Below are positions 21,377-59,656 of a stretch of DNA of 64,000 nucleotides, one piece after another (the stretch's first letter is position 1; each line of letters begins with the position of its first letter). The stretch is taken from NCBI GenBank assembly GCA_016183765.1, contig JACPEA010000007.1:152076-216075 (forward strand), written 5' to 3'. This DNA comes from Bacteroidota bacterium (GTDB taxonomy: Bacteria > Bacteroidota > Bacteroidia > Chitinophagales > Chitinophagaceae). The position numbers and the translations under genes are program-made. A model generated the notes under the pieces. That model searched no databases and was not told the origin of the DNA. It was given only the letters and a program-made list of their open reading frames with translations.

Positions 21377-21398
21377 TACTTGAAAACACCTTGCACAG

Positions 21399-22040: not shown

Positions 22041-22041
22041 T

Positions 22042-23428: not shown

Positions 23429-23431
23429 GTA

Positions 23432-30404: not shown

Positions 30405-30409
30405 TCGTT

Positions 30410-36500: not shown

Positions 36501-38852
36501 CCGGAAGATTATATTCAGGAACAGCCGGAAGATGACGGCATTCCGCACCCGGACGAGAAACCAAAGTCATCTTACACAGCGGACGATTTCCAACTGGACC
36601 CTGACAACCCTGAAGATGCCTACATCATGTTTTGGGATACACTATCTCCCGCAGCCGGTGAGGCACTGGAGAGATTGCAGAATGAGATGGTCAAGAGCGT
36701 ATTCAGCCTCAACAGGTACAACCAGATCATGAGCCCTCTGGTAAAAGCCGGACAGATCACCGAAGAGCAGAAGTCTGAAGGTGCCGTCGTGCTGCGCCAG
36801 TATCTGGAGCACCTCAAGCAGCCTGCAGAAACCATGGCAACTCAGCCTGTAGTCGACGTAACCGAAAGTACCGGACTGGCTGCAGATGAGTATGTAGAAC
36901 CGTTCCCGGCTGAGAGTGAAGAGATATTCATCAATGATTCGCTGGCAAACGAAGACGAGCTGACCAGCGATTTCTTCTACGAAGATGTGGAGGTCAATAA
37001 GACCGCTGATGCTATCTCAGCAGCAACCAGTGGCATCAAATATGTAGAGGGCGTAATTCCTGGTACCGATAAGGTAGTTATCCGTACAGAATACAACGAG
37101 GACGGTGGTCCGGCGCTGGATCCGCAGAGTAGTAAAGCTCTGTTGATCCATAATAAGGTACAGAAGGGAGATGAAGTCATTTTACAGGTAGACAAGGATT
37201 ACAAGGGAACCCGTAGGGTAATGAATCGTCTGGCCACCGATGAAGATGGTAACCCGGCGATGGAGGATGACAGCTTCGATCAGTATACAGATGGTACCTC
37301 CATCCGCATGACCACCAAGCCCGGAGAGAACTGGGCTGGTTTTGCAGATGTGCCCATCAAGATCATACACAAGAAAACCGGGGAAGTCATCGGTTATCTG
37401 CGTACGGCCAGCTGGGTCAATCAGACCAAGGGTGCCGGCAATTACCGCAACATGACCGACCTGTTTCCAGCCGATGAGAACGGTAACCGGATGGAAGGTA
37501 ACGTGCAGTTTCAGACCGACAGGTTACTGGCTATCCGCAAGAAGATCGCACACGGCTGGAACAAAGACAAGAACTACACCATCACAACCCGTATCACAGC
37601 ACGCGGTAAGGGATATGTGTTCCATAACGGGGAGCTGACTGAGAGTACCTTACGCGAGAAGGTGAAGCTTCGCCAGGCCAGCAACAGTTTATCTGACCCT
37701 AATCTGGTATTCGGTATCGCGCACAAGATCAGTGACTCACTGACATTTGGCGTTGACCGTGGGGTGCCTTTTGATGGACCCTTGCAGGAGCTGACTGAGA
37801 AGCAGAAGCAGAAGTTCGCTGGTGCTCCTGTGGTGTTCTTACCGATGCCAGATGGCAGCCACAAGGTGCAGCCGCTGCTCACAGCGAAATTCGATACCCG
37901 TGGTCGTGACATGAACACCCTGTTGCGAGCCATAGAGCTGCATCTGCAGGCCGGTGTCGCTGAGGATGCGTTGTTTACCAAGCACATGGAGCTGATGGAT
38001 AAGACCGGATTCGATATCCGCACCAAAGAAGGCCTGCAGAATCTGATCAACCAACACTACACCTTCACCAACCAGTTCAAGGATGGAACTACAGCTGTGG
38101 ACGCTCCGGCTATCAATGGTAAGAAAGAGCTGCAGTTCATGTTTGCTGTTACCGGGGATGAGACCAACGTCAAAGCCCTCATCAAAGCCGGCGTTGCTTT
38201 TGGCGGGAAACTGGCCAAGGCACAGCTGGTCGACGGTAAGCTCAGTGATGACTTTGTTTCGCTGATGAAGAGTGGGTTTGAAGGTAAGCTGGATGGTCGG
38301 CCTCGCTTTAAGACCGTCACCTTCACCAAAGGTGATATCAAAGGAGTCAATAATAATTCTCCGATAACCGAAGTGGGTATCAACGTAGATGGAAAGACCT
38401 GGTCAAAGACCCACCCCAATTACAATGCCTACCTGAAAAGCTTCACCCGTACCAGTGTGTACGGTAAGCACCAGGTTAACGGAACCTACGTATACGGAGC
38501 GAACTCGTCAGTGATACTGGACGATGGTCCAATATTCGCTCAGTCTGAGGTGAAGGTAGTAGCGTCACCTGCAGAACTGCCTACAGGCGATGGCGCCAAC
38601 GAAGAACTCAGCGCTGAAGAAATCGCAGCACTGATGGAGAGTACCCGCAATGCAAGTCTGTTCGCACCGAGTGCTATCAAGCCGGTTATCCAGCCTGTGG
38701 GTGAGGAGCTGACGTACGAGAACCTGAAGAAGCTGCAAGATCTGGTGGCGGACCCTAACGGGTTACCTGTATATGAGGTACTGGAAAGGTTACAGAAGTT
38801 GGGAATCACACATATTCCGGATGGATATAATCCATTCGTAAAGTGCTCATGA
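33597..38852 (+). CDS. Large virion cargo protein (1751 aa) preceding the virion RNA polymerase
   Basis: N-terminal membrane-like segments, EALQEGIEEVNTQY motif, long coiled coils and an acidic linker. The position matches the large co-ejected proteins of crAss-like phages. Confidence 0.65.
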   Translation: MFNPNDLPGQDPGKLIPKASSPGKGFKASDLPTFGNTPVGNPVLGGTINDTSFDDFRFQPKFAADNQLLRAQDQKWYEQAGLAIGNGVANTVTGLLEGMGYLGSLATEWGDDRNYSNALTETMRNWHNPLGEIYAERPDQVFDLKDPAWWFSNIQQLAESAGAFAIEGAALGKVFGGLAARAAGAMAKEAQLGRAAVRAAGQTMSAATLAYTEGAMSGYRIYDAAYKTNYQRMVDKGASPEEADERAKQIASHAAATTVQMNTVMNTALNLTALAPMFHSEEDLVETWARKKGQGAMAEGESLAAYKSRLKSAGFDDAALKDILVHRKGLSSLTGEALQEGIEEVNTQYAEAEGKRVGEGKSRSLVESLTDLNRYITDVTNEEGALNFVLGSLGGVAQTALLDRIPIHRVPVTGADGKPLVTKDSEGNEKYQTRLVTARTANEFGVREYFTGIKDSLLKDVNHIEDLNARLIKAVTAKDEVAAANLRDELFAVGALDSVTKGLAENWKQQYRNIAEVDNSKDLARELDQPIETLKTQLTEAQQQAAPAEEIAAIQQQLSDQIKQQTELEGKTDAILKGYAKDMKDMSYKQKAERAIADLDALHNMHQQVQRDLVDQFNPVTAELADHVFLRKADLYLRKNNLNRFKEELDAMELAELDASADTVERERLRHLNYAGAWERTSKKMQEDVNQMQTLAKRISDGDTAAVRELTRILSKYRPVGYNETDLGSAVKAAVDSINRRYAQMEASIKKSEEDLKTLSGFSAWLERNPGKTWKDFMSDVSGNQIFEIRKSNYDRAVAEHAIAEENLQHVLSAKGQQEFIQRATEHRNQLVAELNKKNQTYNDAMLLKMQDKKAVAEMSVKSKTVLAQKLEKQLADKTSELNELVDKLNGINRELKELGVHGILKLNKVIPLKQQQTRLKREITSVQTQIDSLREQLALLDAKIDAGIAQAAEPVTPENVEETPEPNPEDYIQEQPEDDGIPHPDEKPKSSYTADDFQLDPDNPEDAYIMFWDTLSPAAGEALERLQNEMVKSVFSLNRYNQIMSPLVKAGQITEEQKSEGAVVLRQYLEHLKQPAETMATQPVVDVTESTGLAADEYVEPFPAESEEIFINDSLANEDELTSDFFYEDVEVNKTADAISAATSGIKYVEGVIPGTDKVVIRTEYNEDGGPALDPQSSKALLIHNKVQKGDEVILQVDKDYKGTRRVMNRLATDEDGNPAMEDDSFDQYTDGTSIRMTTKPGENWAGFADVPIKIIHKKTGEVIGYLRTASWVNQTKGAGNYRNMTDLFPADENGNRMEGNVQFQTDRLLAIRKKIAHGWNKDKNYTITTRITARGKGYVFHNGELTESTLREKVKLRQASNSLSDPNLVFGIAHKISDSLTFGVDRGVPFDGPLQELTEKQKQKFAGAPVVFLPMPDGSHKVQPLLTAKFDTRGRDMNTLLRAIELHLQAGVAEDALFTKHMELMDKTGFDIRTKEGLQNLINQHYTFTNQFKDGTTAVDAPAINGKKELQFMFAVTGDETNVKALIKAGVAFGGKLAKAQLVDGKLSDDFVSLMKSGFEGKLDGRPRFKTVTFTKGDIKGVNNNSPITEVGINVDGKTWSKTHPNYNAYLKSFTRTSVYGKHQVNGTYVYGANSSVILDDGPIFAQSEVKVVASPAELPTGDGANEELSAEEIAALMESTRNASLFAPSAIKPVIQPVGEELTYENLKKLQDLVADPNGLPVYEVLERLQKLGITHIPDGYNPFVKCS

Positions 38853-39011: not shown

Positions 39012-42000
39012 ATGTCACAGCATTGTAGTTTCTTAGCTCCCAACGGCGAAAAATCATTACTCTACGCTGCTCTTGAGCAGAAAGTGGGCGCCGATAAAGC
39101 CACACAGCTCTGGAGTCTCAGTAAATCCAGAGAGTTTCAAAAGCAGTTTTCCGATGTGGAGAAAGACAGCAACGGTGAAGTGGTTGCAGATGCATTGCTG
39201 AGCGTGTTCACCAACGACAGTAAACCCACTGCAATCAGTAAAGACATCACTATTCCGCTGAGCTTCAACACAATGAACGAATTCACCAAGACCTTCGGTA
39301 AGATCGTAGAGCTGGCACGTAAAAATCCAGAGATCACTTACAAGTTCCCGTTCACACCGGCTACGAAGCTGAGTATTGAAGGTAAGCGGTACGACGGTGA
39401 TAAGCTTGCCAATCTCTTATACAGCGAAACTCTGCCAACCAATCTGGTGTTTGACCAGACTCTGCAGGCTCGTATGTTCAACCTGCCACGGGTATTCACC
39501 AAAGGATTGGTGATGGAGATTAACGATCCCCTGGAGTTCGATGAGGCAGCTATGAAGCGCCAGATGGATGACTACTTCGTACGCGTGCGGGACGATAACG
39601 GTGAGATGACCGATAAGTATTTCGACCTGGAGAAGCAGAATGAGATCATCGACATGCTGATGTACATGTTGTACAACAACTACAACCACCCTAAACTGCA
39701 GGGCCCCCGCTGGAAGGTAATTGGGAATCATAAGGACTTGATACTCCAAGGATTACAGGCGCAGTTCGAGTTCTACTCCAACCCTGAGAAATACGGTACG
39801 GAAGGTATCCTTCCCGACCAGGCCAAAGAGATCGCTGGCAACTACCGAATGGTGTTGAACGCTTTCTATACACCTGGCCAGAAGAACAACTTCTGGGAGT
39901 TCACCATCAAGGCGATGGAGGGACTCGGCTTCCGGGTCAAGGGGCCACTGGATACAAAGACCAACGACATTGAGGAGACCAGTGATGAAGAGATACAGGA
40001 ATCCAACGGTCAGTCACTGCGTGACTGGTACAGCAGCTCCTTTGAGCTGGATCCCCGGGACACTGCCAGTGTACGGATGAAGATGTTCCTGATGTCCATT
40101 GAGAAGAGTAAGATAGGTGACGAACTCAAGCCCCGGCAGATCAGCCTGGCATTCAACAATGAGGACACCCGGCGGAAGATCATCACCAAGGAAAAGCAGT
40201 TCACCATCCGTGCTGCAGATACGGTAGCCAAGCACCTCAAGCTTACTGCGTTATCCGGATTGCCACTGGAGATGTCAGGTACTGAGCGTAACCGTCGTTC
40301 AGAGGCCATCGCTACCATTGAAGCTTCCAAAGCTCCCACTACCGTGGTACGCGCTACCGCAACCCACGTGATCAATGCTGAAGAGGCAGAGCAGTTCCGC
40401 GAACAGATGGAAGCGGAGGAAGGCTATACACCTAAAGCCGGAGATGTGTTCATCAAGCTGGAACATTACCAACAGCGAAAGAACATCTTGAGCGTGGAGA
40501 AGAATATCATGGGCACACCTAAGCTGGCCGGATTCGACAGTGTATTCATGGATATGGTTTCGCTGTTGGCTGACCGTAAGCCTGGTTACAGTGGATACCT
40601 CAAGGCACTGCAGGAGAGTGGTAAGCCTGAACTGATGCGTGCAGCCCAGAAGCTGGAGGCAGCTCCCAAGCATATTCAGAACGAATTTGTTGCGGTGATG
40701 TCCAAGCAATACCAGCAGATGATGATGATACTGTTCCGTAAATCCTTCAACGGATTCCTGGAAGGTCGTGTCATCAACGCCAACCGGGCCAGCGAGGTCG
40801 ACACACTTATTTCTCAGTGGAAAGAGAATCAGAAAGCCAGTCCCATTCTGAATCGGGACGAGGCTGGTATCGTACGGGTAGACCGTAGAATTGCTGAGGG
40901 CTTTTACGAAACCCTGAAAGAACTGCAGGAGCGGCAGATCACCAATGCCCGGGAGCGTGCCAAGCTGGACGAGGACTGGTTCGACCTGTTCAAAGCGGTA
41001 CTGGAGGATAACGGTATCAACCTTTCTGATCAAGCCCTCAACCAGGTAAAGCAGATGGGTCCTCAACTTGGTAAGAACACCACGCTGGGTGGAGCCGGAT
41101 ACCAGGGGATCACAGCATTGCTTATCAAGCGTTTGTATATAGGCGCCGGAGAAGTCACCGTACAGCAGGGCGAGGATGAGTTCGGAGAGGAAGCTGATAT
41201 TGAGCCCTTCAAGGTCAACAACCCACTGTACACAGAGGGTACCGCTATGCGGATCCTGGCTAACATTGAAGCCAACTACACCGATAACCTGCATTCACAG
41301 ACCTTACGTAACTCTGAAGGTAAGACCATCTATGCCTACGGCCTCAACACAGCACTGTCACATGCTATTCGACAGATCACAGATGACGGGCCAGAGGGTG
41401 AAGCTTACCGTAACCGGTTTACGGCCGCCTACAACAAGGAGAGCTGGCTACTGAACTTCCTCAGGACTGGTGGTACCCAGGGACGGGGTCGATTCAAGCT
41501 GGCCTATCTGGATGGTATCAAGAACGAATTCGGAACCCGGGATGGTGTTACCAGACCAGAGATGTCCGACAGGGAACAATGGCTCACCGTGCTGTCCCTG
41601 TTCCATAACCGTGGTAACAGCCAGGCACACTACGTAAGCCTGACACACTCTGATAAGACTACCACTCCGGTGTTCCTCAATGGCCCCAGAGAGTACCAGA
41701 TATTCAATCTGCGGGAAGGTAAACACGTGTACTCCAAGAACATACTGGATAAGGTTGTCAATCATGTATTCATCGCTGAGTACAATCGTATCCGGGAATC
41801 ACAGAAGAAGCAGGCAGAGGGCGGTGCATACGACCTGAAGAACTACAACGAAGGCAGTAAATACTTCTACGCTCTACCACTGTTCAACTATGAGAACATG
41901 GTTTCGCTGCAGCAGAAAGGTGCGCTGAGCCCTGAGGATGTGAAAGCCATCTGGGTCAGCGAGAGCAAGCTGAACGACCAAACCCACCCGCTGTTCAGTG

Positions 42001-45000
42001 CGGTGGTGCGTAAACTGATCGCCATGCAGCTGACAGCCATGACCAGCGAAACCATGGACTCCTGGCAGAGATCTGGTTTACTGGAGGCTGGTCTGCCGGG
42101 CACAGACTTTTACCTGAATCGGCTCATGCGTAATGCCGGCTATGTGAACAACGACGGTAAGTACAGTGATAAGGCATGGGTGAACGATAACGAAAAGCCT
42201 GTGGATCCGGAAACAGTGAAATCACTGAAGACCAGGCTTGCCGCAGCTGAGTATACAGTCAACAGTTTCCTGTTCAATGTATCCGGTTCCCAACTATTCT
42301 ACGGAGACCCGGCATTGGCCTGGAAAGGAAGCATCAATAAGACCCTGATCGAATACGGTAAACGTCTGGCCAAGGATATCGCTCCGGGTACCGACGGCAA
42401 CTGGGAAGGGAACTCAACTTACAACGCGGTTACCATTGAGGAATACACACCACTGGTGGAGGAACTGAAAGGTATCCCGGGTTATGAATCCGCGGTAGAG
42501 GGCTCAGATGCGGCCGAACTGACCACAGTGAAAGAACAGCTGGACGTACTGTTTGCGCTTGGTAAAAACATCACGCAGGAACAGTACGAACGGGCAATAG
42601 ATATCATTAACCACCCTGACGAGAACGGATACTACAGCTTTGAAGCTGATCCTGAACTGGACAGGCTGGTGAGGGAGAATATCACACTGCAGATAGATAA
42701 GCCGGTCGTAGCCGGACTAATGGAAACACAGGACGGTGTTATGCGTTACGACTACGTGAAATCAGCCTCTATGGCTCTGTATCCGCCGATGATCGCTGGA
42801 ATGGAGCTGGACAAGCTTCGCAAGGCCATGGAAGCTGGCAACGTACAGCGAGTCAACTTCTCCACAGCGAAGAAACTGGGAGCTCCGGCCGTGAAGCTTT
42901 CCATCTTCAATGCAGATAATACCATCAATGAAAAGGCATTCCAGTCCTCGGCCTGGACAGGAAAGAGTACCAATGGCGCTACTGTTCCCTCTGCCCGTCA
43001 GGTAATGAACAGAGACAATTTCAGGATACAGCAGGATGTTCCCTATGATGCCACCAAGGAAGAGATACGCATGGTTTCACAGATGAACAAGCTGATCGCA
43101 GAGAGTATCGCCACCATCCGACATCCGTTCAAGTTTGAGGGAGCTGAGTATACTGGTCAACAGATACGCGACATCAAGGAAGACATTCGCAAGAAGCTCA
43201 TCACCATCGCCCACCAGCGATTCCTGGACGAGATCGGCGCCACGGAGAAGGATGGTACTATCACAGTAAGCAATCGTAAAAAACTGTACGAGCGGTTAAA
43301 GGCCAGCGTGCTGTCAACCAAAGGTTACAGCCTGAACGATACTGCCGCCATACAGTCCTTCGTCAACAACAGTGACGAGCTTACGCTGCCGCTGATCTTT
43401 ACACCATCAGCCGGCAAATTCGAATCGTTGTTGATGAGTATGATCAAAGATGTTACCAGCATGAAGATGCCTGGTAAATCCTATGTACAGGCATCACCTG
43501 CCGGTTTCAAGCTGATGAAGACCTGGGAAGAAAGCAATCTTGACCGCAACAATATTGTATGGACCAAACCTTTCACAGGTAACCTGCAGACTGCACACAT
43601 CGGGGAAGATGGACGGGTTGTACCGGCTCAGGTACTGGTAAGCTTCAACTACTTTACCAAGAACGGTCAGCGAATCGATATCCGCAAGTTCATCAAAGAG
43701 GTGGACGGTAAGAAGATGATCGATACCGATAAGCTTCTGCCGGAACTGTTCCAGTTGATCGGAGCCCGTATCCCCAACCAGAAGCACTCATCCATGCTGC
43801 CTATCGAGATCGTAGGCTTCCTGCCTGAGACCATGGCTGACACCATTGTAGTACCAGCTGGTATCACCAGGCAGATGGGTGCTGACTTCGACGTGGATAA
43901 GCTGTATACGTACAAGCGTTCCTACCAACAGACCGGAGATCAGCTGAGTGTTGCAGGCACCACTGAAGCGGATACCGATGAGGAGGTCTACCTGAAGAAC
44001 CGGTACTTCGATATTCACTGGTCAGTATTGACCAATCCGGAGATGCTTCCCCGCATGATGAGTCCGCTGGATATAGATGACCTGAAAGCGGAAGCTGAGA
44101 AACGTGCTAAGAAGGGAGTCGACTATTACTTTGGCCCTACCTATCAGCTCAATGACTTCCAGAGCATGAAAGATGCCAAGCGCGGTGTGGGTAGTTCCTC
44201 ACTGGCTGTGACAAACAATGCTGTTGTCCAGGACAAGAACCTGTGGTTAGGCACCATGGAGATCGATGAGGAGACTGGTGATGTACGCCATATTTCTAAG
44301 CCTATCACCATTAACGGTGTGGAGTATACCCACTTATCCGGGTATGCAAATACTTTGGAGAAAAGAACCAAGACCGATACCCTGGTAAACATCCAGTCAG
44401 AGTTCGTGGATAACGCCAGAAACCGGGTAGTTGGTTCACTCAACCTGAATTCCTTCACAACAGATGCAGCGTATGCAATGAGTCGTCTGCAGACTCTGGA
44501 TAGCCACGCAATGAATGCCGACGGGACATCGGAACTGACGCCCGGACAGGCCATCAGCAGCAAAGAAATCGTAGACTTACTGACGCAACCGATTATCATC
44601 GAGTATGCTGCCCGCATGGCACGGCAATCAGACTCCCTGTCTTCAGCCTCAGCGAATGCTCAGCAGGTGGTATATGAGGCGCTGGCTAAGGACTACGCAC
44701 AGGATGCTCCCCAGCTCGAACACCTGAACCTGTTTAAAGCACTGGATGAGATCGGCCAGCAGTTGACAACCCTGCAGACCCTGACCACTACTGATACCCG
44801 CGGTGCCGGTAAGAGTCTCTTGGACACCCTATCGCTGGCAGAGAAAAGATCACGGTTAGGCGTCAACGCTTACGAATACAAGATCCAGGGAATGGGGACT
44901 GTGTTCTTTAACAACGAAGCAGAGACCGAGGTAGGTGCGTTATACCGTATGGGTAACGAGACAGCTATCAAAGTGTTCTCAGCAGATCTGCCATATCAGA

Positions 45001-48000
45001 AACTGACCTCAGTATTCGATATCGTGCGCAGACAGTCAGGTAGAGAAGAATTGGGCCGGGAACTGAAAGAGACACTGTTCGACGGGCTGCGTTCTTACGT
45101 GTTCGGCAGTTCCAGGTTACAGTTATGGTCTGACGCCTATAAGGAGCGTATACGCCTGTTGTTCAATATCAATGGTAACGACAGCCTGGCTAAACGGGTT
45201 GCCCAGGCCAAGGAGAGCTGGGGAAAGCACAACTATTTCCTGCAGCGGCTGCATACGCAGATAGACCCCACGGAACTGAAGCCTGACCTGATCAAGTATG
45301 AAGCCAGTAAGGCGCTGCAGTTGGATGACGAGGAGAATGTTCGTGGCTGGCTGAATCTGCTGTCGTCCGCTGATGAGGAGCAGAAGCGGCTGGGTGAGGA
45401 TCTCATCCGGTACTCTTACCTGACCGGTGGATTACAGAGCGCTGACAACTTCGTCAAGTATATCCCGTTCTCCTACATCAGCGGAACCCAGATCGGGCAT
45501 GAGCTGAGAAATGTACATGCACGACTGGAGGAACATGCAAATAATCCTGTATTCATTGAACAGTTCTTTCAGCACAACCCCATGTATACAAAGCAACTGG
45601 GTGCAAAGCTCAAAGAATCCGGAGTTGAATACGAAACGGCCCCAGACAGCTTCAAGCTGCCAGGCTTGTCAGATTCTACCGAGAACCCTGCATCAAACCT
45701 GGTCGTAAGGGTGAGGATAGGTAGCAAAGAGGTCAATGCTTATCCCAATTACCTGTCTTACCGGGACGGAAAGCAATGGGTACTCTATAAAAAGCGCAGC
45801 AGTGATTTTGATCAGCACGGTGTTAGGTATACCCGTATTGACACCCTGGGCTCCAAAACTGTCTCAGAATACAACGAGAACAGTGAGGAGCAACGTTCTG
45901 TATTCACGGAGAACCGTGCGAATAACTACGAATACATGACACCGGAGTACCGAAAGATCGAGGATCAGGATGTACACATGCTGGCATCTAAGATCGGGAT
46001 CTTCAAGAACTCCGGAAACTACAACGATATCACCCAAGCTCTGAGTGTGATCGCTGCCGATACACAGCAGCCTGATCATATCCGTGCACTGAGCAGCATG
46101 CTGGAATCTGCCAAGCGTATGTCGATTGAGGCTGACCTGTTGAAGAACTTCTCAGCGGCCAACGACCTCACCCTCTCCATTGGGAAGAATGGCCGTAGCC
46201 TGGGTACACTGGATTCTATGACCGGTGTATTGACCCTCAATCCTAAGATGCATTCTTCCAAGCAGGAACTGGCCGGTACGCTGTTACATGAGCTGCTACA
46301 TTATCATACAGCTTTCACACTGACAGCGCTGGAAGATGAGAGCGTATGGGCTACACGCGGAATATCTGCCAGGTCACAGGCAAGTCTGCGGAAGATCCGG
46401 GAACAGCTTGCTGATACGGATATTGCAGAAAAGGCGGCACAGCTGACCGACCTGCGTAAGATAGCGCTGGACAAACTCCGCAACGAGGTCATTGCTAAAG
46501 AGGGAGTCGACGGTTGGGCCAAACGTCAGGCAGAAGTTAGCAGCGGTACTATCAACGGACAGTATTCGCATCTGCTTTATGGCCTGTCCAGCAATACAGA
46601 ATTCATTACACACCTGTTCACGGATGGAGCCGTTATCGAATACCTGAACAACATCCCTCACAGCGAAAAGAAATCACTGTTGGGCCGTATCCGCGACCTG
46701 ATCAGCGAACTCTGGAGCAGCCTGATGGACGCGTTGGGCGTTAGAGAGGATTCGCTGATGGAAGAGGCTGTGCATAAGGCGCTGGAGATCCTGACCTACG
46801 ATAAGGCATCAGACTTCAAGGCTGATAACAGCATGACCGGAATGGACAGCATCATCAATGCTTCTTTCAGTGATTTCTCTCCTATACAGAAGATCATCGG
46901 TAAGCTGGAAGAGCAGAAGTCCGAATTGATACGCAGCTATACCGGTGTGACCAAACGCGGGGATAGTGTGGCTATCTCCAGAAAGATACGAGCTATTGAA
47001 GCTGATATCAGGGAACTACAGGAAGACGCGGATCTGCTGCAGGTGGCCAGCATTGGTAAGCGCCAGTTAAGCTGGGTCAACTCTATTACCAACAACACTC
47101 AGGCTACAGCGAATCAACTGATGACGGCTGTACGTTTGAATGATGTGTGGAACGGAGTGATCGACCTGATCTACGGTAACGAGAGTGTAGAAGCTGATGC
47201 TGACCTGATGCAGATCCAACAGCAGGCCAACCGGAACCGGGCCAAGTTAAACGCACGTTTACGCGACTACATGACCGATATCAGCCAGGGCACCATCAAA
47301 CCGGCGGACTGGTTACCGTCTAACCTGCAGGATCTGGGTAAATACAACAGCCAGATACGCTCTATGTCATCCGCTGCTCACTCACAGGTGTTACAATACA
47401 TCTCAGGGTTCGTAGAGACCACCGGAAGACAGCGTGATGAAGAGGCCCGTCGTATCGTCAAAGCTCTGCGTAAACTGGAAAAGGACATGCTAGCACACAG
47501 CGGTGGCAAGACCCAGTTGCAGGCTCTCTACAATAAACTGATGCAACAAAATGTGGATGAGAACGATACCAAGACCTGGGGACTGGTACAACAGTACAGC
47601 TCTCAGTGGTTCTCATGGAGACAACAACAGATAGCTAAACGCAATGCTATCCTGCGTAAGTATGCCAAGGATAAAACACCAGGAGCTGATGTGACAAAGA
47701 ACATGGAGAATCGGGCTGCCAGGGCACTGGCTTGGAAGATGTACTGGAAAGAACTGAAAGACAATGCCGTACTGATAGATACCCGGGTGTTATTTAACCC
47801 TGAGACCGGAGAGCTGAATACCGGTATCGAAGACTACCTGAAATCGCTGGCAGCAGGGGTGGGAGAGGATCATGTACAGACCATCCTGGAACGTGCACAG
47901 ACCCGGTACAAAGAATACCTGAATGAGCGGGATGTGCTGTTTGAGAAACTGCAGGAAGAATTCGAACGGGGAGAGCTTACACAAGAGAAGATGGATGAAG

Positions 48001-50219
48001 AGAAGAGTGTATTCGTAGAGAATTACTCTCCTAATGCTTTCTTCGACGAGAAGAAAGGCGGTGAGTTCACCATGGGTATGAATGCAGATAAGTACATCGT
48101 TATCGCTCCCAAGGCAGCCAAGACCGAGTTTTGGGATCAGAATTATCGAGAGGTAATGCAGGATGAGCAACTAAAGAGTTTCTACAGCCGCTATAAGACG
48201 ATGATGGATACATTGCTATCCTTCCTGCCTAAAACAGTACAGGAGAATGCCGGCGCATCATTCTTGCCAGCGGTGGCCAAGTCACTGGTAGCAGATAACC
48301 TGGACATCAAAGCTTACTTCGAGAATTACTCCAAGCGTTTTGTAGAATCAGTAGCAGCCGATGGCTGGAGCGAGGCCATGAATGCCCGCGCTTACAATAA
48401 GATACCACTGGAATTTGTGGATGATACTGTACCGGTAGCTGACCGCAGCCGGGACATTATCCGCATCGCTGAGGTGTTTGCCACCATGGCCACCCACTAC
48501 CGTCACTTCTCTGCAGCGAAAGACGTGATCGAGATGGGAGAGAGTATCATCGAAGAGATACACCACGCCGAGAGTAGTGGTACCGTGCAGATGGAGCAGA
48601 ACGGTAAGATCGTGACCGTACAGAAAGGCCTGGAAAACGCGATCAAAGCCCTGCGTTACCTGAAAGAGTACAGCGTCTATCGCAAACCTAAAGCACTGGA
48701 GTTCTCTCTGGGTGGTAAGTTGTTCGCTGAGAGGACTGAGGAGGGTACCAAGTACAGCCTTAACCCGCTCACACAGACCGCCATCAGTAACAAGGTTCGG
48801 GACCTGATGGTACAGCGCGAAAAGCTGGAGAAGGAATTCTTGAACCCTGAAGGTGAGCAGATGACCGTGGAGGAATACACCAAGCAACGGGAAGCTATTG
48901 ACAAACAGTTGGAACCTTATGTAGGTTACACACTGTACGGAAGTAAGGTGGGTGACAAACTGATCGGTATCAACCAGCTCAAAGCGTTAGCCTTCAACCC
49001 TTTCTCTGCAGTTGCCAACGTAAGCTTCGGTCTGCTGTCAGTTTACATCCATGCCAGCGGACGTCAGGATTTCACCCGCGGTGAGGTCAACCAGGCCTTT
49101 AAGAAGTTGTTGAATCTGCCGGGATCCGCTGAACAGGAAAAGATCATGAACCTGATGGAGCGTCTGGGCATCATGGGGGATATCGTGGACAGCCATTACG
49201 GCCGGGTACCACAGAACCGGGATAACATACCGACCTGGAAGAAGCTGGCCGACCCCTTCCAACTGATGCGTAGTTCTGACTTCTTCATGAAGGGGGTAAC
49301 TACTGTGGCCCATCTGCTGCACCAGAAGATCGAGGTAGAGACCGCTGAGGGTAAACAAACCATTCCGCTGTACGATGCTTTCAATACAGACGGCGAATGG
49401 GATACTAAGAAATACGGAGAGCGGCCGGAGTGGTCTTCCAAGGACATGCAGGAGCAAAAAGCCTTTGATAAACTGCGGAACAGGGTCATACGCCTGAATA
49501 TGATCATACACGGTAACCAGGATAAGAACTCACCGAAGCTTCTCAATAAGAGCGTGGTGGGCCGACTGATCGGTCAGTTCCGACTGAGCTGGTTACCGGA
49601 AGGCTGGTACAACCGATTCCAGGATGAACACTTTGATCAGCAACTGGGAAGAGCTGTGAAAGGACGTTACCGTACCATTGGCCAGCTCGGCTGGGGAGGT
49701 AATATGATGGTACTGGGCCGATCACTACTGAATCTGATACCGGGAGTAAAAGTGGATACCTGGAGCGGCATCCCGCTCAATAACGGTAAGTCGCTTGCTG
49801 ATAGCGCTGTGGATGTGGAGAACATGCACAGGAACCTTACAGAGCTTGGGTTCTTCCTGACACTCAGTGCGGCCATCCTGTCGCTGAGGTACCTGGGAGG
49901 GGATGATGAAGATAAGGTTGCCGATGGAGCCATGAAGATCCTGATCAACCAGCTTATCCGCGGTAAGCAGGATATCGACTTCTACGTATCCCCAAGCGTG
50001 TTCGACACGGTAACCCGGGACTTCATCCCAGCGAGCAATGTCATCAAGGACTATATGAAACTGGTCAAAGCCACAGGTAAACTGATGCTGGACGATGACT
50101 ACGAGTTCTCTGAGTGGATGTTGAAAATGACCAAAGCTGGTCTGCCGATTCCGGAAGCTGCGCTGGTTAATAAGGTGAAGTTCATGATGACCAAGAACTT
50201 GGATGACATGCAGAATTAA
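39012..50219 (+). CDS. Giant virion-packaged two-barrel DNA-dependent RNA polymerase polyprotein (3735 aa)
   Basis: Catalytic DFDVD (aa 1625-1629, nt 43884-43898) in the context TRQMGADFDVDKLY; upstream FRIQQDVP and IGARIPNQKHSSM; HELLH zincin motif at aa 2426-2430; N-terminal C..LAPNG.KS.L motif. Confidence 0.88.
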   Translation: MSQHCSFLAPNGEKSLLYAALEQKVGADKATQLWSLSKSREFQKQFSDVEKDSNGEVVADALLSVFTNDSKPTAISKDITIPLSFNTMNEFTKTFGKIVELARKNPEITYKFPFTPATKLSIEGKRYDGDKLANLLYSETLPTNLVFDQTLQARMFNLPRVFTKGLVMEINDPLEFDEAAMKRQMDDYFVRVRDDNGEMTDKYFDLEKQNEIIDMLMYMLYNNYNHPKLQGPRWKVIGNHKDLILQGLQAQFEFYSNPEKYGTEGILPDQAKEIAGNYRMVLNAFYTPGQKNNFWEFTIKAMEGLGFRVKGPLDTKTNDIEETSDEEIQESNGQSLRDWYSSSFELDPRDTASVRMKMFLMSIEKSKIGDELKPRQISLAFNNEDTRRKIITKEKQFTIRAADTVAKHLKLTALSGLPLEMSGTERNRRSEAIATIEASKAPTTVVRATATHVINAEEAEQFREQMEAEEGYTPKAGDVFIKLEHYQQRKNILSVEKNIMGTPKLAGFDSVFMDMVSLLADRKPGYSGYLKALQESGKPELMRAAQKLEAAPKHIQNEFVAVMSKQYQQMMMILFRKSFNGFLEGRVINANRASEVDTLISQWKENQKASPILNRDEAGIVRVDRRIAEGFYETLKELQERQITNARERAKLDEDWFDLFKAVLEDNGINLSDQALNQVKQMGPQLGKNTTLGGAGYQGITALLIKRLYIGAGEVTVQQGEDEFGEEADIEPFKVNNPLYTEGTAMRILANIEANYTDNLHSQTLRNSEGKTIYAYGLNTALSHAIRQITDDGPEGEAYRNRFTAAYNKESWLLNFLRTGGTQGRGRFKLAYLDGIKNEFGTRDGVTRPEMSDREQWLTVLSLFHNRGNSQAHYVSLTHSDKTTTPVFLNGPREYQIFNLREGKHVYSKNILDKVVNHVFIAEYNRIRESQKKQAEGGAYDLKNYNEGSKYFYALPLFNYENMVSLQQKGALSPEDVKAIWVSESKLNDQTHPLFSAVVRKLIAMQLTAMTSETMDSWQRSGLLEAGLPGTDFYLNRLMRNAGYVNNDGKYSDKAWVNDNEKPVDPETVKSLKTRLAAAEYTVNSFLFNVSGSQLFYGDPALAWKGSINKTLIEYGKRLAKDIAPGTDGNWEGNSTYNAVTIEEYTPLVEELKGIPGYESAVEGSDAAELTTVKEQLDVLFALGKNITQEQYERAIDIINHPDENGYYSFEADPELDRLVRENITLQIDKPVVAGLMETQDGVMRYDYVKSASMALYPPMIAGMELDKLRKAMEAGNVQRVNFSTAKKLGAPAVKLSIFNADNTINEKAFQSSAWTGKSTNGATVPSARQVMNRDNFRIQQDVPYDATKEEIRMVSQMNKLIAESIATIRHPFKFEGAEYTGQQIRDIKEDIRKKLITIAHQRFLDEIGATEKDGTITVSNRKKLYERLKASVLSTKGYSLNDTAAIQSFVNNSDELTLPLIFTPSAGKFESLLMSMIKDVTSMKMPGKSYVQASPAGFKLMKTWEESNLDRNNIVWTKPFTGNLQTAHIGEDGRVVPAQVLVSFNYFTKNGQRIDIRKFIKEVDGKKMIDTDKLLPELFQLIGARIPNQKHSSMLPIEIVGFLPETMADTIVVPAGITRQMGADFDVDKLYTYKRSYQQTGDQLSVAGTTEADTDEEVYLKNRYFDIHWSVLTNPEMLPRMMSPLDIDDLKAEAEKRAKKGVDYYFGPTYQLNDFQSMKDAKRGVGSSSLAVTNNAVVQDKNLWLGTMEIDEETGDVRHISKPITINGVEYTHLSGYANTLEKRTKTDTLVNIQSEFVDNARNRVVGSLNLNSFTTDAAYAMSRLQTLDSHAMNADGTSELTPGQAISSKEIVDLLTQPIIIEYAARMARQSDSLSSASANAQQVVYEALAKDYAQDAPQLEHLNLFKALDEIGQQLTTLQTLTTTDTRGAGKSLLDTLSLAEKRSRLGVNAYEYKIQGMGTVFFNNEAETEVGALYRMGNETAIKVFSADLPYQKLTSVFDIVRRQSGREELGRELKETLFDGLRSYVFGSSRLQLWSDAYKERIRLLFNINGNDSLAKRVAQAKESWGKHNYFLQRLHTQIDPTELKPDLIKYEASKALQLDDEENVRGWLNLLSSADEEQKRLGEDLIRYSYLTGGLQSADNFVKYIPFSYISGTQIGHELRNVHARLEEHANNPVFIEQFFQHNPMYTKQLGAKLKESGVEYETAPDSFKLPGLSDSTENPASNLVVRVRIGSKEVNAYPNYLSYRDGKQWVLYKKRSSDFDQHGVRYTRIDTLGSKTVSEYNENSEEQRSVFTENRANNYEYMTPEYRKIEDQDVHMLASKIGIFKNSGNYNDITQALSVIAADTQQPDHIRALSSMLESAKRMSIEADLLKNFSAANDLTLSIGKNGRSLGTLDSMTGVLTLNPKMHSSKQELAGTLLHELLHYHTAFTLTALEDESVWATRGISARSQASLRKIREQLADTDIAEKAAQLTDLRKIALDKLRNEVIAKEGVDGWAKRQAEVSSGTINGQYSHLLYGLSSNTEFITHLFTDGAVIEYLNNIPHSEKKSLLGRIRDLISELWSSLMDALGVREDSLMEEAVHKALEILTYDKASDFKADNSMTGMDSIINASFSDFSPIQKIIGKLEEQKSELIRSYTGVTKRGDSVAISRKIRAIEADIRELQEDADLLQVASIGKRQLSWVNSITNNTQATANQLMTAVRLNDVWNGVIDLIYGNESVEADADLMQIQQQANRNRAKLNARLRDYMTDISQGTIKPADWLPSNLQDLGKYNSQIRSMSSAAHSQVLQYISGFVETTGRQRDEEARRIVKALRKLEKDMLAHSGGKTQLQALYNKLMQQNVDENDTKTWGLVQQYSSQWFSWRQQQIAKRNAILRKYAKDKTPGADVTKNMENRAARALAWKMYWKELKDNAVLIDTRVLFNPETGELNTGIEDYLKSLAAGVGEDHVQTILERAQTRYKEYLNERDVLFEKLQEEFERGELTQEKMDEEKSVFVENYSPNAFFDEKKGGEFTMGMNADKYIVIAPKAAKTEFWDQNYREVMQDEQLKSFYSRYKTMMDTLLSFLPKTVQENAGASFLPAVAKSLVADNLDIKAYFENYSKRFVESVAADGWSEAMNARAYNKIPLEFVDDTVPVADRSRDIIRIAEVFATMATHYRHFSAAKDVIEMGESIIEEIHHAESSGTVQMEQNGKIVTVQKGLENAIKALRYLKEYSVYRKPKALEFSLGGKLFAERTEEGTKYSLNPLTQTAISNKVRDLMVQREKLEKEFLNPEGEQMTVEEYTKQREAIDKQLEPYVGYTLYGSKVGDKLIGINQLKALAFNPFSAVANVSFGLLSVYIHASGRQDFTRGEVNQAFKKLLNLPGSAEQEKIMNLMERLGIMGDIVDSHYGRVPQNRDNIPTWKKLADPFQLMRSSDFFMKGVTTVAHLLHQKIEVETAEGKQTIPLYDAFNTDGEWDTKKYGERPEWSSKDMQEQKAFDKLRNRVIRLNMIIHGNQDKNSPKLLNKSVVGRLIGQFRLSWLPEGWYNRFQDEHFDQQLGRAVKGRYRTIGQLGWGGNMMVLGRSLLNLIPGVKVDTWSGIPLNNGKSLADSAVDVENMHRNLTELGFFLTLSAAILSLRYLGGDDEDKVADGAMKILINQLIRGKQDIDFYVSPSVFDTVTRDFIPASNVIKDYMKLVKATGKLMLDDDYEFSEWMLKMTKAGLPIPEAALVNKVKFMMTKNLDDMQN

Positions 50220-50281: not shown

Positions 50282-51043
50282 ATGGCACTCCAACCCGTAC
50301 TAACATTAACTGAACTGGCCCCTGATGCCAGTTACCTGATAGTAAAAGACAATACAGGTGTGTATAATGCGCAGTCCAATCCTGGTGGATTTGGTACACC
50401 GAACCCTGCCAGTGCAGATGTAACTGCCGCCATATTTCACCTGTCGAGTTTTACAGACATCACAAAATCCTTTGGATACAGAGTAGGTACGTTTTCGTCC
50501 TTCTTAGCCAGCCAGATGAAGGCTACTGTAGGCACTTTTATGGGGATCAGTGATCGGGATGTATTCAGGGATGGGGTATACTCTATGAAGTACTACCTGG
50601 CTTTCGCTGTAGTTGATACGATAACCTTCGCTTCGGGTTCCAAGCAGTTTGCACTGACCAACGCTGACACGGTATTTGCTACAGGTGTTGGATTTGTGAT
50701 CCCATCCTTAAATGGCACCAAGGTCTATTTCATCGACCGTACGCAGCCGTTAACCAACAGCGGAGGATATGTCACAGAAGCCCTACCCACATTCACCGCA
50801 GCGAAAGCTATTGAGAAGGTGTATGAAGGTGATCTCAAATTCCTTAATGACAAAGCTGGTACCAACGGATTGAATGCAGATATCGCTGCAGCCTGTGACG
50901 ATAACTGTGATTGCATTGATGAGGAGTACAAGAATGTCTGGAAACGTTATACCTGGAAAGTAAGTATGGAGTCTAAGTTCTCCAGAAAGCTGTTCAGTGA
51001 AGCTCACACACTTGCTGTTGAACTTGAAAGCTACGCACTATAA
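50282..51043 (+). CDS. Phage tail hub / fibre-attachment-like structural protein
   Basis: DNTGVYNAQSNPGGFGTPNP and DGVYSMKY motifs as I recall them from Bacteroidota podovirus tail genes. Supported by position. Confidence 0.5.
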   Translation: MALQPVLTLTELAPDASYLIVKDNTGVYNAQSNPGGFGTPNPASADVTAAIFHLSSFTDITKSFGYRVGTFSSFLASQMKATVGTFMGISDRDVFRDGVYSMKYYLAFAVVDTITFASGSKQFALTNADTVFATGVGFVIPSLNGTKVYFIDRTQPLTNSGGYVTEALPTFTAAKAIEKVYEGDLKFLNDKAGTNGLNADIAAACDDNCDCIDEEYKNVWKRYTWKVSMESKFSRKLFSEAHTLAVELESYAL

Positions 51044-51786
51044 TGTTATTTCCTACACCACATATCAACACCAGCCAAAATACAGCATTGGAAAAGCTCA
51101 GTGACCTGGGCTATAACTATTTCCTGCGCGAAAAATATCAGCTGCATTTTGACAATAAGCATACGGATCGTAAGTACCTGCTGCTGTTGCAGGCTATCGG
51201 CTCCTGGGATAACCGCTCTGGCGCTGTCAATGCCTTCACTGAGGCTCAGCTTGCCAACATGCTCGACAGGTTAACCTGCGTTTCCAAGGATCCGCTGGTG
51301 AAATACCAGCCACCGGTTACCGGAGGTACCTGCGGTGTCGGTGGAACTACCGCCGGACTGGGATACGCAGCAGGTCTGAGTGGAAGCCTGAGCGGTATCA
51401 CCCTTGGCATTCTCAATACCCGCAGCATCAACCTGACACTGGTCAACGATACATTGTCAGCTAACACCAATGTATCCAATGTGAGCGGTAATGCTTTGAC
51501 AGTGCTTACCGATGGTTTGTACGTCACACAAGCTTCGACGGGTACCAGTAAGTTCATCCGGTCGGATGCATTTACAACCTCAACCCAGTATAACGATGTT
51601 TCGCTGAAGGATAAGCAGTTCGTGGTGACCTATCGCGGATATGGAGAGTTGTATTACAACTGGGCCAATCCCAGCGATCCTCTGAACGAGTTTCAACTGG
51701 TAGGTACAGGTGGGTTCAATATTACAATACCAGGATTCGATGTCACATTGGATCCTAATAACACCTTCCACATCCTGATACTATGA
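51043..51786 (+). CDS. Hypothetical phage tail-associated protein
   Basis: Intact ORF coupled to its neighbours; Gly-rich linker and beta-rich C-terminus. Confidence 0.5.
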   Translation: MLFPTPHINTSQNTALEKLSDLGYNYFLREKYQLHFDNKHTDRKYLLLLQAIGSWDNRSGAVNAFTEAQLANMLDRLTCVSKDPLVKYQPPVTGGTCGVGGTTAGLGYAAGLSGSLSGITLGILNTRSINLTLVNDTLSANTNVSNVSGNALTVLTDGLYVTQASTGTSKFIRSDAFTTSTQYNDVSLKDKQFVVTYRGYGELYYNWANPSDPLNEFQLVGTGGFNITIPGFDVTLDPNNTFHILIL

Positions 51787-54700
51787 AAAAAGTAATATCC
51801 ATACTGGTACTGATCGGGGTCTTGACACTGGCTTTCAGTCTTGGACTGCATGCGCAACCTGTCATGCAACGGGCTACCGGATCCACAACAGTGGCCGACA
51901 GTCGCCTGATGGTACAGTTGAACTTCTTTCTGCCTAAATATACCGATACTACCGTGGCCAACTCCAGCAAAGGAGTCGACAGTTGCGGGGCGTTGATATT
52001 CACCACCGATAACAAAATATGGGTTCGTGAATGTTCTCCAAAGCGCTGGGCCTATGTGGCCAGCGGCAATTACCTGAACAGTAAACTCAATATCAGTGAT
52101 ACGGCCAACATGCTGCAGACCTATGTAAGGGTGCAGCGTTTCCTGGATTCGCTGGTAGCTGTGCAGTTGCGTGTGCAGAGTAAGCAGCCTATTGGCAACT
52201 ATCTGCAAGCCGGCAACAATCTGGCTGATGTCAGTAACGTCAATACAGCTCGCAGTAACCTTGGCGTCTTCTCCAAAGCGGACACCACTGCCCCGGGCGG
52301 TATGTACCCGTGGAGTAACCCGCTGGGATTCCTCACATCAGCGACTGGTAGTTACCAACGCGTGAGTAAAGTTGACACACTATTTCCTGTCCGGGGAATT
52401 TTGGACTTTTCAGCTGAGTTCAATCTCACTGATTACCCTACAAAGACAACCGTGTCGATTGCACGGATTGCATCCAGTAAGATCACAGGTTTGGCTAATG
52501 GCGCTTACTTTGATACAACCTCTCTCATTCCACGTTTCAATCAACGGGTTCTATACTCTGATATAGCTGGGATGTTAGCCGGTTATCTACCACTATCCCT
52601 TCCATCAAGCAAAGCTGTAGTACTGAATGGAAACACATTGGATTTTTACGGTACAAATGGAGCGGGCCAATATACTTCAGGTAGGGTTGTAGTCTATCCT
52701 AACTTCGGTGGCGTTGGCTATCAGGTGGGTGGTAATTTTTATGGCTTGGCGGTAGATACACTTGGTATTGGGTCTTATTCAAGCCATGCAGGTAAGCCGC
52801 TTAACTACGCATCGAATTATTCCGCCAATATGGGCGATAATTCTCTCATAAATAGGCTGTATGCTGACGGCAGGTATATTAGCAAGACTGGTACGGACAC
52901 TATCTCAGGCGTTAAGACATTTACCGGATACCCGCTTACTTTAGATGGCACAACTCTTTCGTTAAAGAATTACACCAACATAAATATCTATGATGGTCAG
53001 CCTATCAACTGGAGAAGAACGAGCGATAATGCTTACATGGGTTATATTCAAGATAACCAAGTAGACGAGTGGCAATTTGATGCAACCCCTGGAGTACACA
53101 TGACTGTTCGCATTCCTGATATAAGGTTGGCAACAGGAACAAGTGGCAAGGTGAAGATCGGAGCAAATAGCGCAGCAGCACAAGCATTGGATGTGGTTGG
53201 TACTATTCGGCAATCATCTGTAGCATCTTCCGTTTTAAAGGCAAATGCGTCGGGTGATATAGTGGCTGCTGTGGCAGGTACAGATTATCAGGCAGCATTG
53301 GGCTTTACTCCCGAAAACGTTGCCAATAAGGGTGCCGCCAACGGATATGCGCCTATAGGATCCGATTCCAAGATAGCTACAACCTACCTGCCAGCTATCA
53401 CCATGAATAATGTGTTCACAGCGGCCAGCCAGTCGGCTATGTTAGCCCTTTCGGCGGTGGTGGGTGATATGTGTGTGCGCACGGATAGTACCATAACCTA
53501 TGTACTCCAGGTAGCAGCGCCTTCCAATCCGGCAGCATGGGTTAAGATACTAAGCCCATCGGCACCAGTTTCCTCTGTAAATGGGAAGACAGGAGTTGTG
53601 AGCCTGCTCACATCCGATATATCAGAGGGAGGCACATCCTACTATTGGACTGCAGCCAGATCCCGTGCTGCGCAATCAGTATCTGCTGTTGGTTTGACCT
53701 ATAACAATACCACAGGGGATATATCCATTACTGCAGGTTATGTGATACCTACCACCACAGATATCAGTAATGGGAATACGGCATATAGCAAGCGGGTAAC
53801 GGCGGTCGATCTGTCTGCCTCTACGCTTACGATCACTTTTGCTGATGCTTCAACAGTAACAGCTTCTGTACCTACATTCAACCAGAATACTACCGGCAAC
53901 GCTGGTACTGTTACAAACGGTGTTTATACAACAACATTCAATGGATTAGGTGATGCAAGGTATTTACAGCTAACTGGTGGGACATTAACAGGTGGGCTCG
54001 CCGGTACAACAGCATCATTTTCACTTGGAAATATTTCAGGTGGTATTGGTTCTGTAAAGAACCTAACTGTTACTAATACAAATGGTGCGGTTGGTGATTT
54101 TGCTGGATTAAACTTTGCATACTATAACAGTACAACAAATTTTGCGTACATAGGAACAGTTCTTACCAGTGCTGCATCTAATTCAGCAGCTGATTTAGTT
54201 TTCGGGGTTAAGGCAAATGCGTCTGCAACAACTGTTACAGAATACATGAGAATTGCTGTTGGTGGAGCAACAACTTGGGCAGGTAGCGGTACCTTTAGTG
54301 GTACAGTAACATCTGGTGTTGCTAAAATAGGTACTTGGTCTGCTTCATCAAGCTACGCTCGTTTCGGACATTCAAGCTACGATGTTGCAAGCAACTCTGG
54401 ATTTCTTCAAAGAAGTGATGGATTTTTATATCTTGAAGGTTCTTCTCTCTACGTGTCCGCTGTAGCAGGTTCAAGTGATGTTATAGTATATGCTGATAAT
54501 GGTGGTAAGATTGGGAAGATGGTTATCGGTTCTGGTCTATCATTTAGCGGAGGTACTCTATCAGCAACAGGTGGTTCTGCTGGTACTGTAACAGGTAGTG
54601 GTACTGTTGGATATATACCATTGTGGAATAGCGCAAGTGATATTGGTAATAGTCAGATAAGCCAAAGTGGGGGTTTAGTGAACATCAATGGTAACATACA

Positions 54701-56878: not shown

Positions 56879-56891
56879 ATAAACAGATAAC

Positions 56892-57290
56892 ATGAAAATC
56901 TTAACAGTATTACTGAGCCTGATGTTAACGCTCACATCTTCTGCCAGCGAAATCCATCCTACAGCTGTGACTGTAACCGCTCAGGTGAGTTCCACTGTAA
57001 TGAGTGAGACGCTGGTGATCCCCAAAGGTGCAAAGCAGATCAATCCTGTCGTTGTAACCTTCAAGGGAGACTCCGCTTACTCAGTGAGCTGGGTTGTCAA
57101 CAAGATCACCAGCGACACCACGGTGGACAGTTATGGTGAGGTATACCTTAACGGCAAGCAAGGTTATCCTATCGTACAGTTCGGTATCACTATTCCGAAA
57201 GCGATCATCAATAGTTGGGGACTGGACAACTCTTCCATTGATGACTTCATATTCAAACTACCCGAGATGAAACGTTTCGTTCGTAAATAA
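56892..57290 (+). CDS. Hypothetical exported protein
   Basis: Signal MKILTVLLSLMLTLTSSA. Confidence 0.6.
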   Translation: MKILTVLLSLMLTLTSSASEIHPTAVTVTAQVSSTVMSETLVIPKGAKQINPVVVTFKGDSAYSVSWVVNKITSDTTVDSYGEVYLNGKQGYPIVQFGITIPKAIINSWGLDNSSIDDFIFKLPEMKRFVRK

Positions 57291-57319
57291 TTTATCACTT
57301 AAACCCTAAATCACAGATC

Positions 57320-57673: not shown

Positions 57674-57707
57674 ACCGTAAACTATAACCCCCTTATACTC
57701 TAAACCC

Positions 57708-59639: not shown

Positions 59640-59656
59640 GTGAACCGGATTGGATT
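59640..59656 (+). repeat. Right att core (overlaps the tRNA-Arg 3' end)
   Basis: GTGAACCGGATTGGATT, identical to 20337-20353. Confidence 0.93.

Follow-up and report, generated by a model that had tools for sequence, protein, structure and literature searches.

The giant open reading frame (ORF) at positions 39012–50219 (+) of the window, the 64,000-nucleotide stretch of a Chitinophagaceae genome analysed here (assembly GCA_016183765.1, contig JACPEA010000007.1, positions 152,076 to 216,075), is most probably a fusion of two crAss-like phage (Crassvirales) genes, the orthologues of gp66, the virion RNA polymerase of phage phi14:2, and of its neighbour gp65, stranded in an internally deleted prophage at a tRNA-Arg gene. 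We put the probability of this reading at roughly 0.85. The frame is uninterrupted for 3735 codons, as had been stated in a first-pass annotation, and the residue positions given there for the motifs RIPNQ (1586–1590), DFDVD (1625–1629), HELLH (2426–2430) and EFIT (2530–2533) are exact. The same annotation described a helical C-terminal region of about 1300 residues; its length holds, with about 1305 residues following HELLH, and a helical fold is seen in our model for residues 2323–2720 only. The boundary between the gp66-like and gp65-like parts was placed with a MAFFT alignment of 70 homologues and the concatenated phi14:2 gp66 and gp65. The parts of the ORF are the following:

39012..50219 (+), giant ORF (3735 residues), fused orthologue of phi14:2 gp66 and gp65
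39012..45977 (+), gp66-like part, residues 1 to ~2322: N-terminal domains of unknown function, two-barrel core and C-terminal domains
42246..44876 (+), polymerase core, residues 1079–1955, aligned to residues 875–1389 and 1483–1787 of 6VR4
43767..43781 (+), RIPNQ, residues 1586–1590, invariant block 5' of the catalytic motif
43884..43898 (+), DFDVD, residues 1625–1629, predicted Mg-binding catalytic motif, aligned to gp66 DFDID 1361–1365
45924..46016 (+), variable linker, residues ~2305–2335, where the end of gp66 and the start of gp65 map, conservation drops and length varies
45978..50216 (+), gp65-like part, residues 2323–3735: zincin-like domain, then a long conserved tail
46287..46301 (+), HELLH, residues 2426–2430, putative zincin metal-binding/catalytic motif, placed by the model on a long helix after a three-stranded sheet
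46599..46610 (+), EFIT, residues 2530–2533, with invariant E2530 as the likely third metal ligand of a gluzincin-type site

A phmmer search of the PDB sequences with the giant protein returned one chain, 6vr4_A, which is the phi14:2 virion RNA polymerase gp66 (E 2.8e-27). The match comprises two blocks, query residues 1079–1639 with gp66 875–1389 and query residues 1654–1955 with gp66 1483–1787, and IGARIPNQ...GADFDVDKLY of the giant protein aligns on IGYRIPNQ...GSDFDIDKMY of gp66. Searches of phage genomes with tblastn found crAss-like phages only (phi14:2, the FpV4 group of Flavobacterium phages and gut crAss-like phages), and the protein falls in PHROG 16227, a virion structural protein family (E 2e-44). 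The AlphaFold2 model of residues 1080–1960 is of moderate confidence (predicted local distance difference test, pLDDT, 62.9) and has strands on both sides of DFDVD; its sole significant Foldseek match in the PDB is again 6vr4_A (E 7.8e-23, TMq 0.51, 973 columns). The first-pass annotation had tied its assignment to a pair of double-psi beta-barrels around DFDVD, and, because 6vr4_A is the only significant PDB match of the model as a whole, the model gives no sign that a gp66-type barrel pair is missing. By mapping onto gp66, in which the connector spans residues 1095–1238 (bioRxiv 10.1101/2020.03.07.982082), the core at residues 1079–1955 should hold both barrels and the connector.

The gene neighbourhood is also that of the gp66 family, with the polymerase gene placed after the tail/muzzle and cargo genes and beside the orthologues of gp67 and gp65. 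The identification as a crAss-like virion RNA polymerase, already made in the first-pass annotation, is thus upheld by the phmmer and Foldseek matches to 6vr4_A, the alignment of DFDVD on DFDID and synteny. Residues 1 to ~2322 are predicted to form a gp66-type DNA-dependent RNA polymerase, with two barrels in one chain and metal bound at DFDVD. The protein shares with phi14:2 gp66 the DFDxD motif, the RIPNQ block and the position after the tail/cargo and gp67-position genes; identity is approximately 26%, and the window protein has some 140 more residues before the junction. In phi14:2, gp66 and gp65 are separate genes of a free phage, whereas in the window they form an in-frame fusion in a chromosomal remnant.

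From the composition of the protein itself, the expected chance counts are 0.066 for HExxH and 0.034 for DFDxD, so either motif alone is just mildly unlikely. The motifs by themselves are therefore suggestive only, and the case rests on their conservation among homologues. A protein search at E <1e-5 found at least 396 homologues, 120 of which were listed; these are 3139–6242 residues long and lie mostly on contigs of 87–100 kb. DFDVD or DFDID is present in 116 of the 120 listed homologues, as are both motifs together (also 116), separated by 784–1189 residues. In the 70-sequence alignment, H2426, E2427, H2430, Y2523 and E2530 are invariant, as is the whole RIPNQ...DFDVDK block. Pfam families matched the whole 3735-residue protein at noise level only when E-values up to 1 were admitted (Enkurin, E 0.011; SprT-like, E 0.14), and no 19-residue window of it exceeds 1.5 Kyte-Doolittle units, which means that it has no clear membrane helix.

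The C-terminal third of the chain corresponds to gp65. In phi14:2 the genes run g074, g073, g072 (tail tubular), g071, g070, g069, g068, g067, g066, g065, where g066 encodes the polymerase (2180 residues) and g065 an 'RNA polymerase associated protein' (1421 residues). The latter contains HEIMH at residue 245 and a YGFTNVHEF block, whose counterparts in the giant protein are HELLH and YGLSSNTEF, and the gp66/gp65 gene junction maps to about residue 2322. Because the gp65 motifs align and the gene junction falls at this point, the ORF is a gp66-like protein joined to a gp65-like one. The window protein resembles gp65, and the crAssphage 'RNAP-associated protein fused to zincin protease', in having HExxH, some 100 residues, an invariant Glu in a YG..N.EF block and a long tail, and in both cases the zincin occurs in a virion cargo context. 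By contrast, BLAST similarity to gp65 is marginal (E 0.006), and the zincin part of the window protein is the C-terminal third of a polymerase chain.

The AlphaFold2 model of residues 2323–2720 has a mean pLDDT of 81.8 and is mostly helical, with a three-stranded sheet, the long HExxH helix and a later helix carrying E2530, in that order. Its Foldseek matches in the PDB are weak (best E 0.44); the best of them are zincins, namely PprI/IrrE, selecase (probability 0.97, 71 columns), LTA4 hydrolase and abylysin. In profile comparisons the domain matched projannalysin (E 0.0016) and, across the Glu helix, the 'internal virion protein' 9sfn_G (E 0.007). Against BFVD, a set of predicted viral structures, the matches are significant (probability 1.0, E 5e-5 to 5e-3). 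They include a Pseudomonas phage internal core protein, 'large polyvalent protein associated domain' proteins, Bordetella phage internal protein D, the crAssphage 'RNAP associated protein fused to zincin protease' and the virion-encapsulated RNA polymerase of the N4-like Vibrio phage phi 1 (E 5e-4). The embedded zincin motif proposed in the first-pass annotation is real in the sense that an HExxH...E signature is conserved, is invariant in 70 sequences and has its match in phi14:2 gp65. Residues ~2323–3735 appear to be a gp65 orthologue, with a putative MPTase-type zincin domain (HELLH and E2530) followed by a long tail.

Neither the polyprotein fusion nor the idea of self-processing by the zincin is new, as both have been published. 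Self-processing has been hypothesised for fusions of gp65, gp66 and gp67 (bioRxiv 10.1101/2020.03.07.982082) and for the MPTase domains of polyvalent proteins, those of N4-type virion polymerases included (PMC5512222); the MPTase zincin of polyvalent proteins was described by Iyer et al. 2017. Proteolysis by the gp65/MPTase family is predicted, and no member has demonstrated activity (bioRxiv 10.1101/2020.03.07.982082; PMC5512222). Should any cleavage occur in the window protein, the linker at residues ~2305–2335 is the predicted site.

Three-part gp67-gp66-gp65 polyproteins are known from other crAss-like phages (Yutin et al. 2018, as presented by Drobysheva et al.). They have the same modules in the same order as the window, in which only the last two are fused and a gap of 159 nucleotides separates the gp67-position gene from the giant ORF. 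The upstream 1751-residue protein is homologous to the N-terminal ~1650 residues of relatives of 5.3–6.2 thousand residues in which all three proteins are fused (blastp identity 28–39%, mostly over spans of about 1600 residues, E 0 to ~1e-72). Because the gp67-position protein matches the N-terminus of these long relatives, the clade, judged from its sequences, is one of three fusion states: unfused (phi14:2), two-part (here) and three-part (the 5.3–6.2 thousand-residue relatives).

The second half of the finding concerns the location of the gene. The chromosomal setting recognised in the first-pass annotation is genuine, with housekeeping genes on both flanks of one 233.7 kb contig in a 3.67 Mb genome that is 99.98% complete. 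The last housekeeping gene on the left is prfB, ending at 11821, and hutH (59944) and glnS (62250) lie on the right. Between them, an element of 39.3 kb is bounded by attachment (att) sites:

20337..20353 (+), attL, a 17-bp copy of the tRNA-Arg 3' end, GTGAACCGGATTGGATT, 160 bp upstream of the integrase gene
20513..21313 (+), truncated integrase, with arm-binding and SAM-like domains and no catalytic domain
59640..59714 (-), tRNA-Arg(TCT), whose 3' end faces the phage block; attR is 59640-59656

The 17-bp direct repeat is the sole shared 16-mer or longer between 59480–59760 and 11800–21450. The integrase is 44% identical to residues 1–201 of a complete 382-residue integrase on a metagenomic contig (L004), the likeness ending at residue 198 (nucleotide ~21107). 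This contig encodes a 49%-identical polymerase and carries the full integrase gene (29258–30406) directly after the lysis genes. The order predicted for the prophage is therefore attL, int, early genes, head, tail, polymerase, fibres, lysis and attR. The window follows it, except that the whole stretch from integrase residue 198 to the gp74-like gene at 21399 is missing. What is retained corresponds, gene by gene and at similar sizes, to phi14:2 (g074 to g065) and to the metagenomic relatives.

No head genes like those of phi14:2 were found elsewhere in the genome. When 24 phi14:2 virion proteins were searched against the whole genome with tblastn, only the tail tubular protein and g066 matched, both inside the window; the genome contains no Pfam Terminase_6N domain and no match to the phi14:2 terminase, portal or capsid proteins. 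Since complete relatives are 87–100 kb long and the element is 39.3 kb, approximately 50–60 kb have been lost. The remnant resembles cryptic prophages, such as the defective prophages of E. coli K-12, in that the att sites are kept, the integrase is broken, essential modules are lost and genes are stranded; it differs from them in its parent, a crAss-like phage, from a group that is mostly non-integrating.

We propose that a temperate crAss-like phage integrated into the 3' end of tRNA-Arg(TCT), and that one internal deletion then removed half of the integrase gene and the early/replication, terminase, portal and capsid genes. This event would have left behind the tail, cargo, fibre and lysis genes with full-length frames, and the polymerase would be stranded, lacking both a virion for its transport and early genes as templates. 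By analogy with phi14:2, in a functional phage of this type the host RNA polymerase would transcribe the giant gene in the middle/late period, the protein would be packed in the capsid, extruded with the DNA and refolded, and the ejected polymerase would transcribe the early replicative module in a rifampicin-insensitive manner. In phi14:2 itself, gp66 reads the early replicative module and g066 is a middle/late virion gene read by the host RNA polymerase (bioRxiv 10.1101/2020.03.07.982082). In the crystal structure of gp66 the catalytic motif adopts a conformation unable to catalyse (bioRxiv 10.1101/2020.03.07.982082), and activation on ejection is therefore implied. In such a phage the zincin might cut the chain in the variable linker, or it might, as in N4, stay attached while the C-terminal part regulates or anchors the polymerase.

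Several points weigh against a stranded gp66–gp65 fusion in a deleted prophage. The model of the polymerase core is just moderate, the barrel pair being judged by the match of the whole model, and the matches of the zincin model to solved zincins are weak. The queries for head genes were phi14:2 proteins, which are distant, and a single Pfam terminase family, so that very divergent copies elsewhere are possible. All retained giant frames are intact, which fits a recent deletion and would equally fit retention by selection. Finally, an integrase with a Phage_int_SAM_5 domain was found in one of 23 near-complete 87–100 kb relatives from IMG/VR (G401–G423), which makes a temperate lifestyle unusual for the group; integration seems to be a minority trait in the clade.

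Among the alternatives, the one that survives best concerns the fate of the protein rather than its origin. The fused protein may not cleave itself and may act as one chain, as N4 gp50 does, with the zincin and tail regulating, autoinhibiting or anchoring the polymerase, or with the zincin directed at host peptidoglycan or proteins. We regard this as a serious possibility, though one short of even odds. Escherichia phage N4 (Schitoviridae) gp50 is the nearest analogue in architecture and has a comparable layout, with ~1000 N-terminal residues, a polymerase, an HExxH domain and >1000 C-terminal residues, and both it and the crAss-type polymerase are ejected with the DNA. The window zincin is related to the C1 region of gp50 (hhalign probability 82%, E 1e-5, 45 columns), AETllHElxHxhT being aligned with METLIHELVHAST, and the N4-like RNA polymerase found in BFVD agrees with this. 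In a greedy alignment the NEF block of gp50 falls on EF of EFIT, where phi14:2 gp65 has HEF. N4 gp50 has been solved as one chain of 3500 residues, in which the C-terminal domain binds, dampens and autoinhibits the polymerase (PMC13434306). Because gp50, with a related zincin, is one chain, a zincin beside a virion polymerase does not alone imply self-cleavage. Relatives with two-part and three-part fusions exist, and a host-directed role is among the published options (bioRxiv 10.1101/2020.03.07.982082; PMC5512222). Against an uncleaved chain, the partners are separate proteins in phi14:2 and PhicrAss001; they can therefore work apart, and cleavage of the fused forms is plausible. Moreover, the helical tail has no detectable similarity to the helical C2 domain of N4 gp50 (hhalign probability 2.7%), and for this reason homology of the whole C-terminal module to N4 is not established. 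The two polymerases are unrelated, being T7-like in N4 and two-barrel in the window protein. An N4-type polymerase was considered for the window protein and rejected, as PF21769 and the other gp50 marker families are absent in the Pfam scan (E up to 1) and the core is gp66-like.

A bolder form of this alternative, which we hold only tentatively and consider rather doubtful, is that the zincin and tail are an ancestral ejection/regulation module shared with N4-type polymerases and T7-type internal core proteins, and that, by analogy with N4, the fused chain stays uncleaved. If so, two unrelated polymerases, two-barrel and T7-like, would have been grafted independently onto one cargo module, and the role of the C-terminal part would be autoinhibition or anchoring of the polymerase, not proteolysis.

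Co-option by the host, whether to supply a second rifampicin-insensitive RNA polymerase or a defence/exclusion factor, would explain the intact frame, and is very improbable. The frames of the 39 kb remnant are all full length and match free-phage relatives in size, and all catalytic and zincin residues are kept. On the other hand, the remnant is confined to this genome, and any homologue is present in just three of the 401 genomes of the host's family, the other two being distant (28% identity). The fibre and lysis genes are kept too, as recent decay would give, unlike selective retention. In addition, the crystallised form of gp66 is inactive, and the early genes that serve as its natural templates have been lost here. 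Promoter and terminator counts around the giant gene were not above those of shuffled sequence, and no promoter signal stood out, in a sigma-70-based scan that is poorly suited to Bacteroidota. The second rifampicin-insensitive host polymerase envisaged in the first-pass annotation is unsupported, because the gene lies in a beheaded prophage that lacks the early module, gp66's natural template, together with an integrase catalytic domain, terminase, portal and capsid. The simplest reading is that the giant gene is a well-preserved, recently stranded relic rather than a second host polymerase.

An intact inducible prophage, or a misassembled join, with the polymerase still serving a live phage, is the least probable reading of all, since the att repeats, the tRNA site and the intact late region are set against an integrase without its catalytic domain, a length of 39.3 kb where complete relatives have 87–100 kb, the lack of a terminase and of a phi14:2-like portal or capsid gene in the genome, and chromosomal flanks on both sides within one contig.

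The other genes of the stranded prophage were called with PHROGs, tblastn with phi14:2 g072 and Pfam in the tail/cargo region, and are arranged as follows:

21399..33597 (+), tail/cargo genes: gp74-like virion protein, gp73-position gene, tail tubular-like gene, muzzle and internal virion/cargo proteins
23432-28768 (+), muzzle (crAss_MUZ), 1778 residues, with a Pfam PF25731 match at window position ~23798
28759-29526 (+), muzzle C-terminal piece, 255 residues, a separate ORF with a 10-nucleotide overlap with the muzzle gene
33597..38852 (+), gp67-position gene, 1751 residues, separate, assigned by blastp to three-part fused relatives and by synteny
50282..59472 (+), downstream remnant genes: two small virion-type genes, a 1400-residue tail fibre, a holin and further genes at the lysis-cassette position

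The muzzle is also split in two relatives, L003 and L004 (1724 and 251 residues, and 1218 and 278 residues), so the split is a feature of the clade and not a sign of decay. A PHROGs search with the 76-residue tail of the truncated integrase frame, the gp67-position protein and two further remnant ORFs gave no significant match (best E 0.075). Just outside attL, on the minus strand at 12813–19965, lies an island of low GC content (0.32–0.38, against 0.47 for the genome) with an ABC-3C/Lamassu-type gene set (SMC-like ATPase, MC2, Mrr_cat+CTD6) and an FtsK-gamma+HNH protein; the prophage remnant does not include this island.

The family is widespread in metagenomes, with 222 relatives in IMG/VR, many of them with terminal repeats. 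Many of the giant relatives (including P0027-P0034, P0035, P0048, P0054, P0082 and P0109) carry extra Pfam domains, namely PIF1/UvrD-type helicase, His_Phos_1, NADAR (PF08719), PF18760 and PF18762. By these domain matches, the giant relatives behave as polyvalent proteins with variable cargo. Helicase, His phosphatase, NADAR and ART domains occur as accessories in some relatives, and none of the extra domains is present in the window protein.

The two other homologues in the host's family (genomes G134 and G393) are uninformative on the clade of the window protein, being distant. In G134, which belongs to another genus of the same family, a chromosomal protein of 1416 residues (L013:367-4617 on G134:C16) is 27% identical to polymerase residues 1460–1733. 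It reads FRVPNN...GSDFGIDALY, with Gly in place of the middle catalytic Asp, and lacks HExxH; this relative may be catalytically dead and belong to another context. In G393, a frame of 2720 residues around 3818–4504 of locus L017 (G393:C20, a 43.9 kb contig) is gp66-like, with GYRIPTQ...GSDFDIDKLF and no HExxH. By its sequence it is an unfused polymerase, and the contig could be a phage contig or a prophage.

A single-sequence scan of a genome-contig collection found no relative, and an alignment-based scan with the patterns used found two loci, on a Flavihumibacter metagenome-assembled genome (MAG) contig (48% identity) and on a 'Rickettsiales' MAG contig (25%). The latter, L021 (RXKF01000051.1), is a 72 kb contig of a MAG labelled 'Rickettsiales bacterium'. 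Binning of a crAss-like phage contig into the MAG probably accounts for its 25%-identical polymerase relative, which would then not be a Rickettsiales gene. The 293 kb ENA scaffold L003 encodes, at its extreme end and in the gene order of the window, a giant polymerase with 48% identity. Because no phage of this type should reach 293 kb, L003 may represent a further integrated copy, truncated on the right where the scaffold stops.

In itself the protein is a small addition to a family with hundreds of metagenomic members in which the fusion and the zincin have already been described. As a full-length, apparently undamaged polymerase-zincin fusion, it offers a defined sequence from which the fused form can be cloned, which would bear on two questions about gp66: whether the zincin cleaves the chain, and whether cleavage is needed for activation of the polymerase. 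The tRNA att repeats and the half integrase are direct evidence that a crAss-like phage with this polymerase can integrate. The most useful new angle is the relation that sequence profiles and models suggest between the zincin and those of N4-type virion polymerases and podovirus core proteins. This link between the crAss-type and N4-type zincins points to a cargo module common to both and, as an alternative, to a role other than proteolysis.

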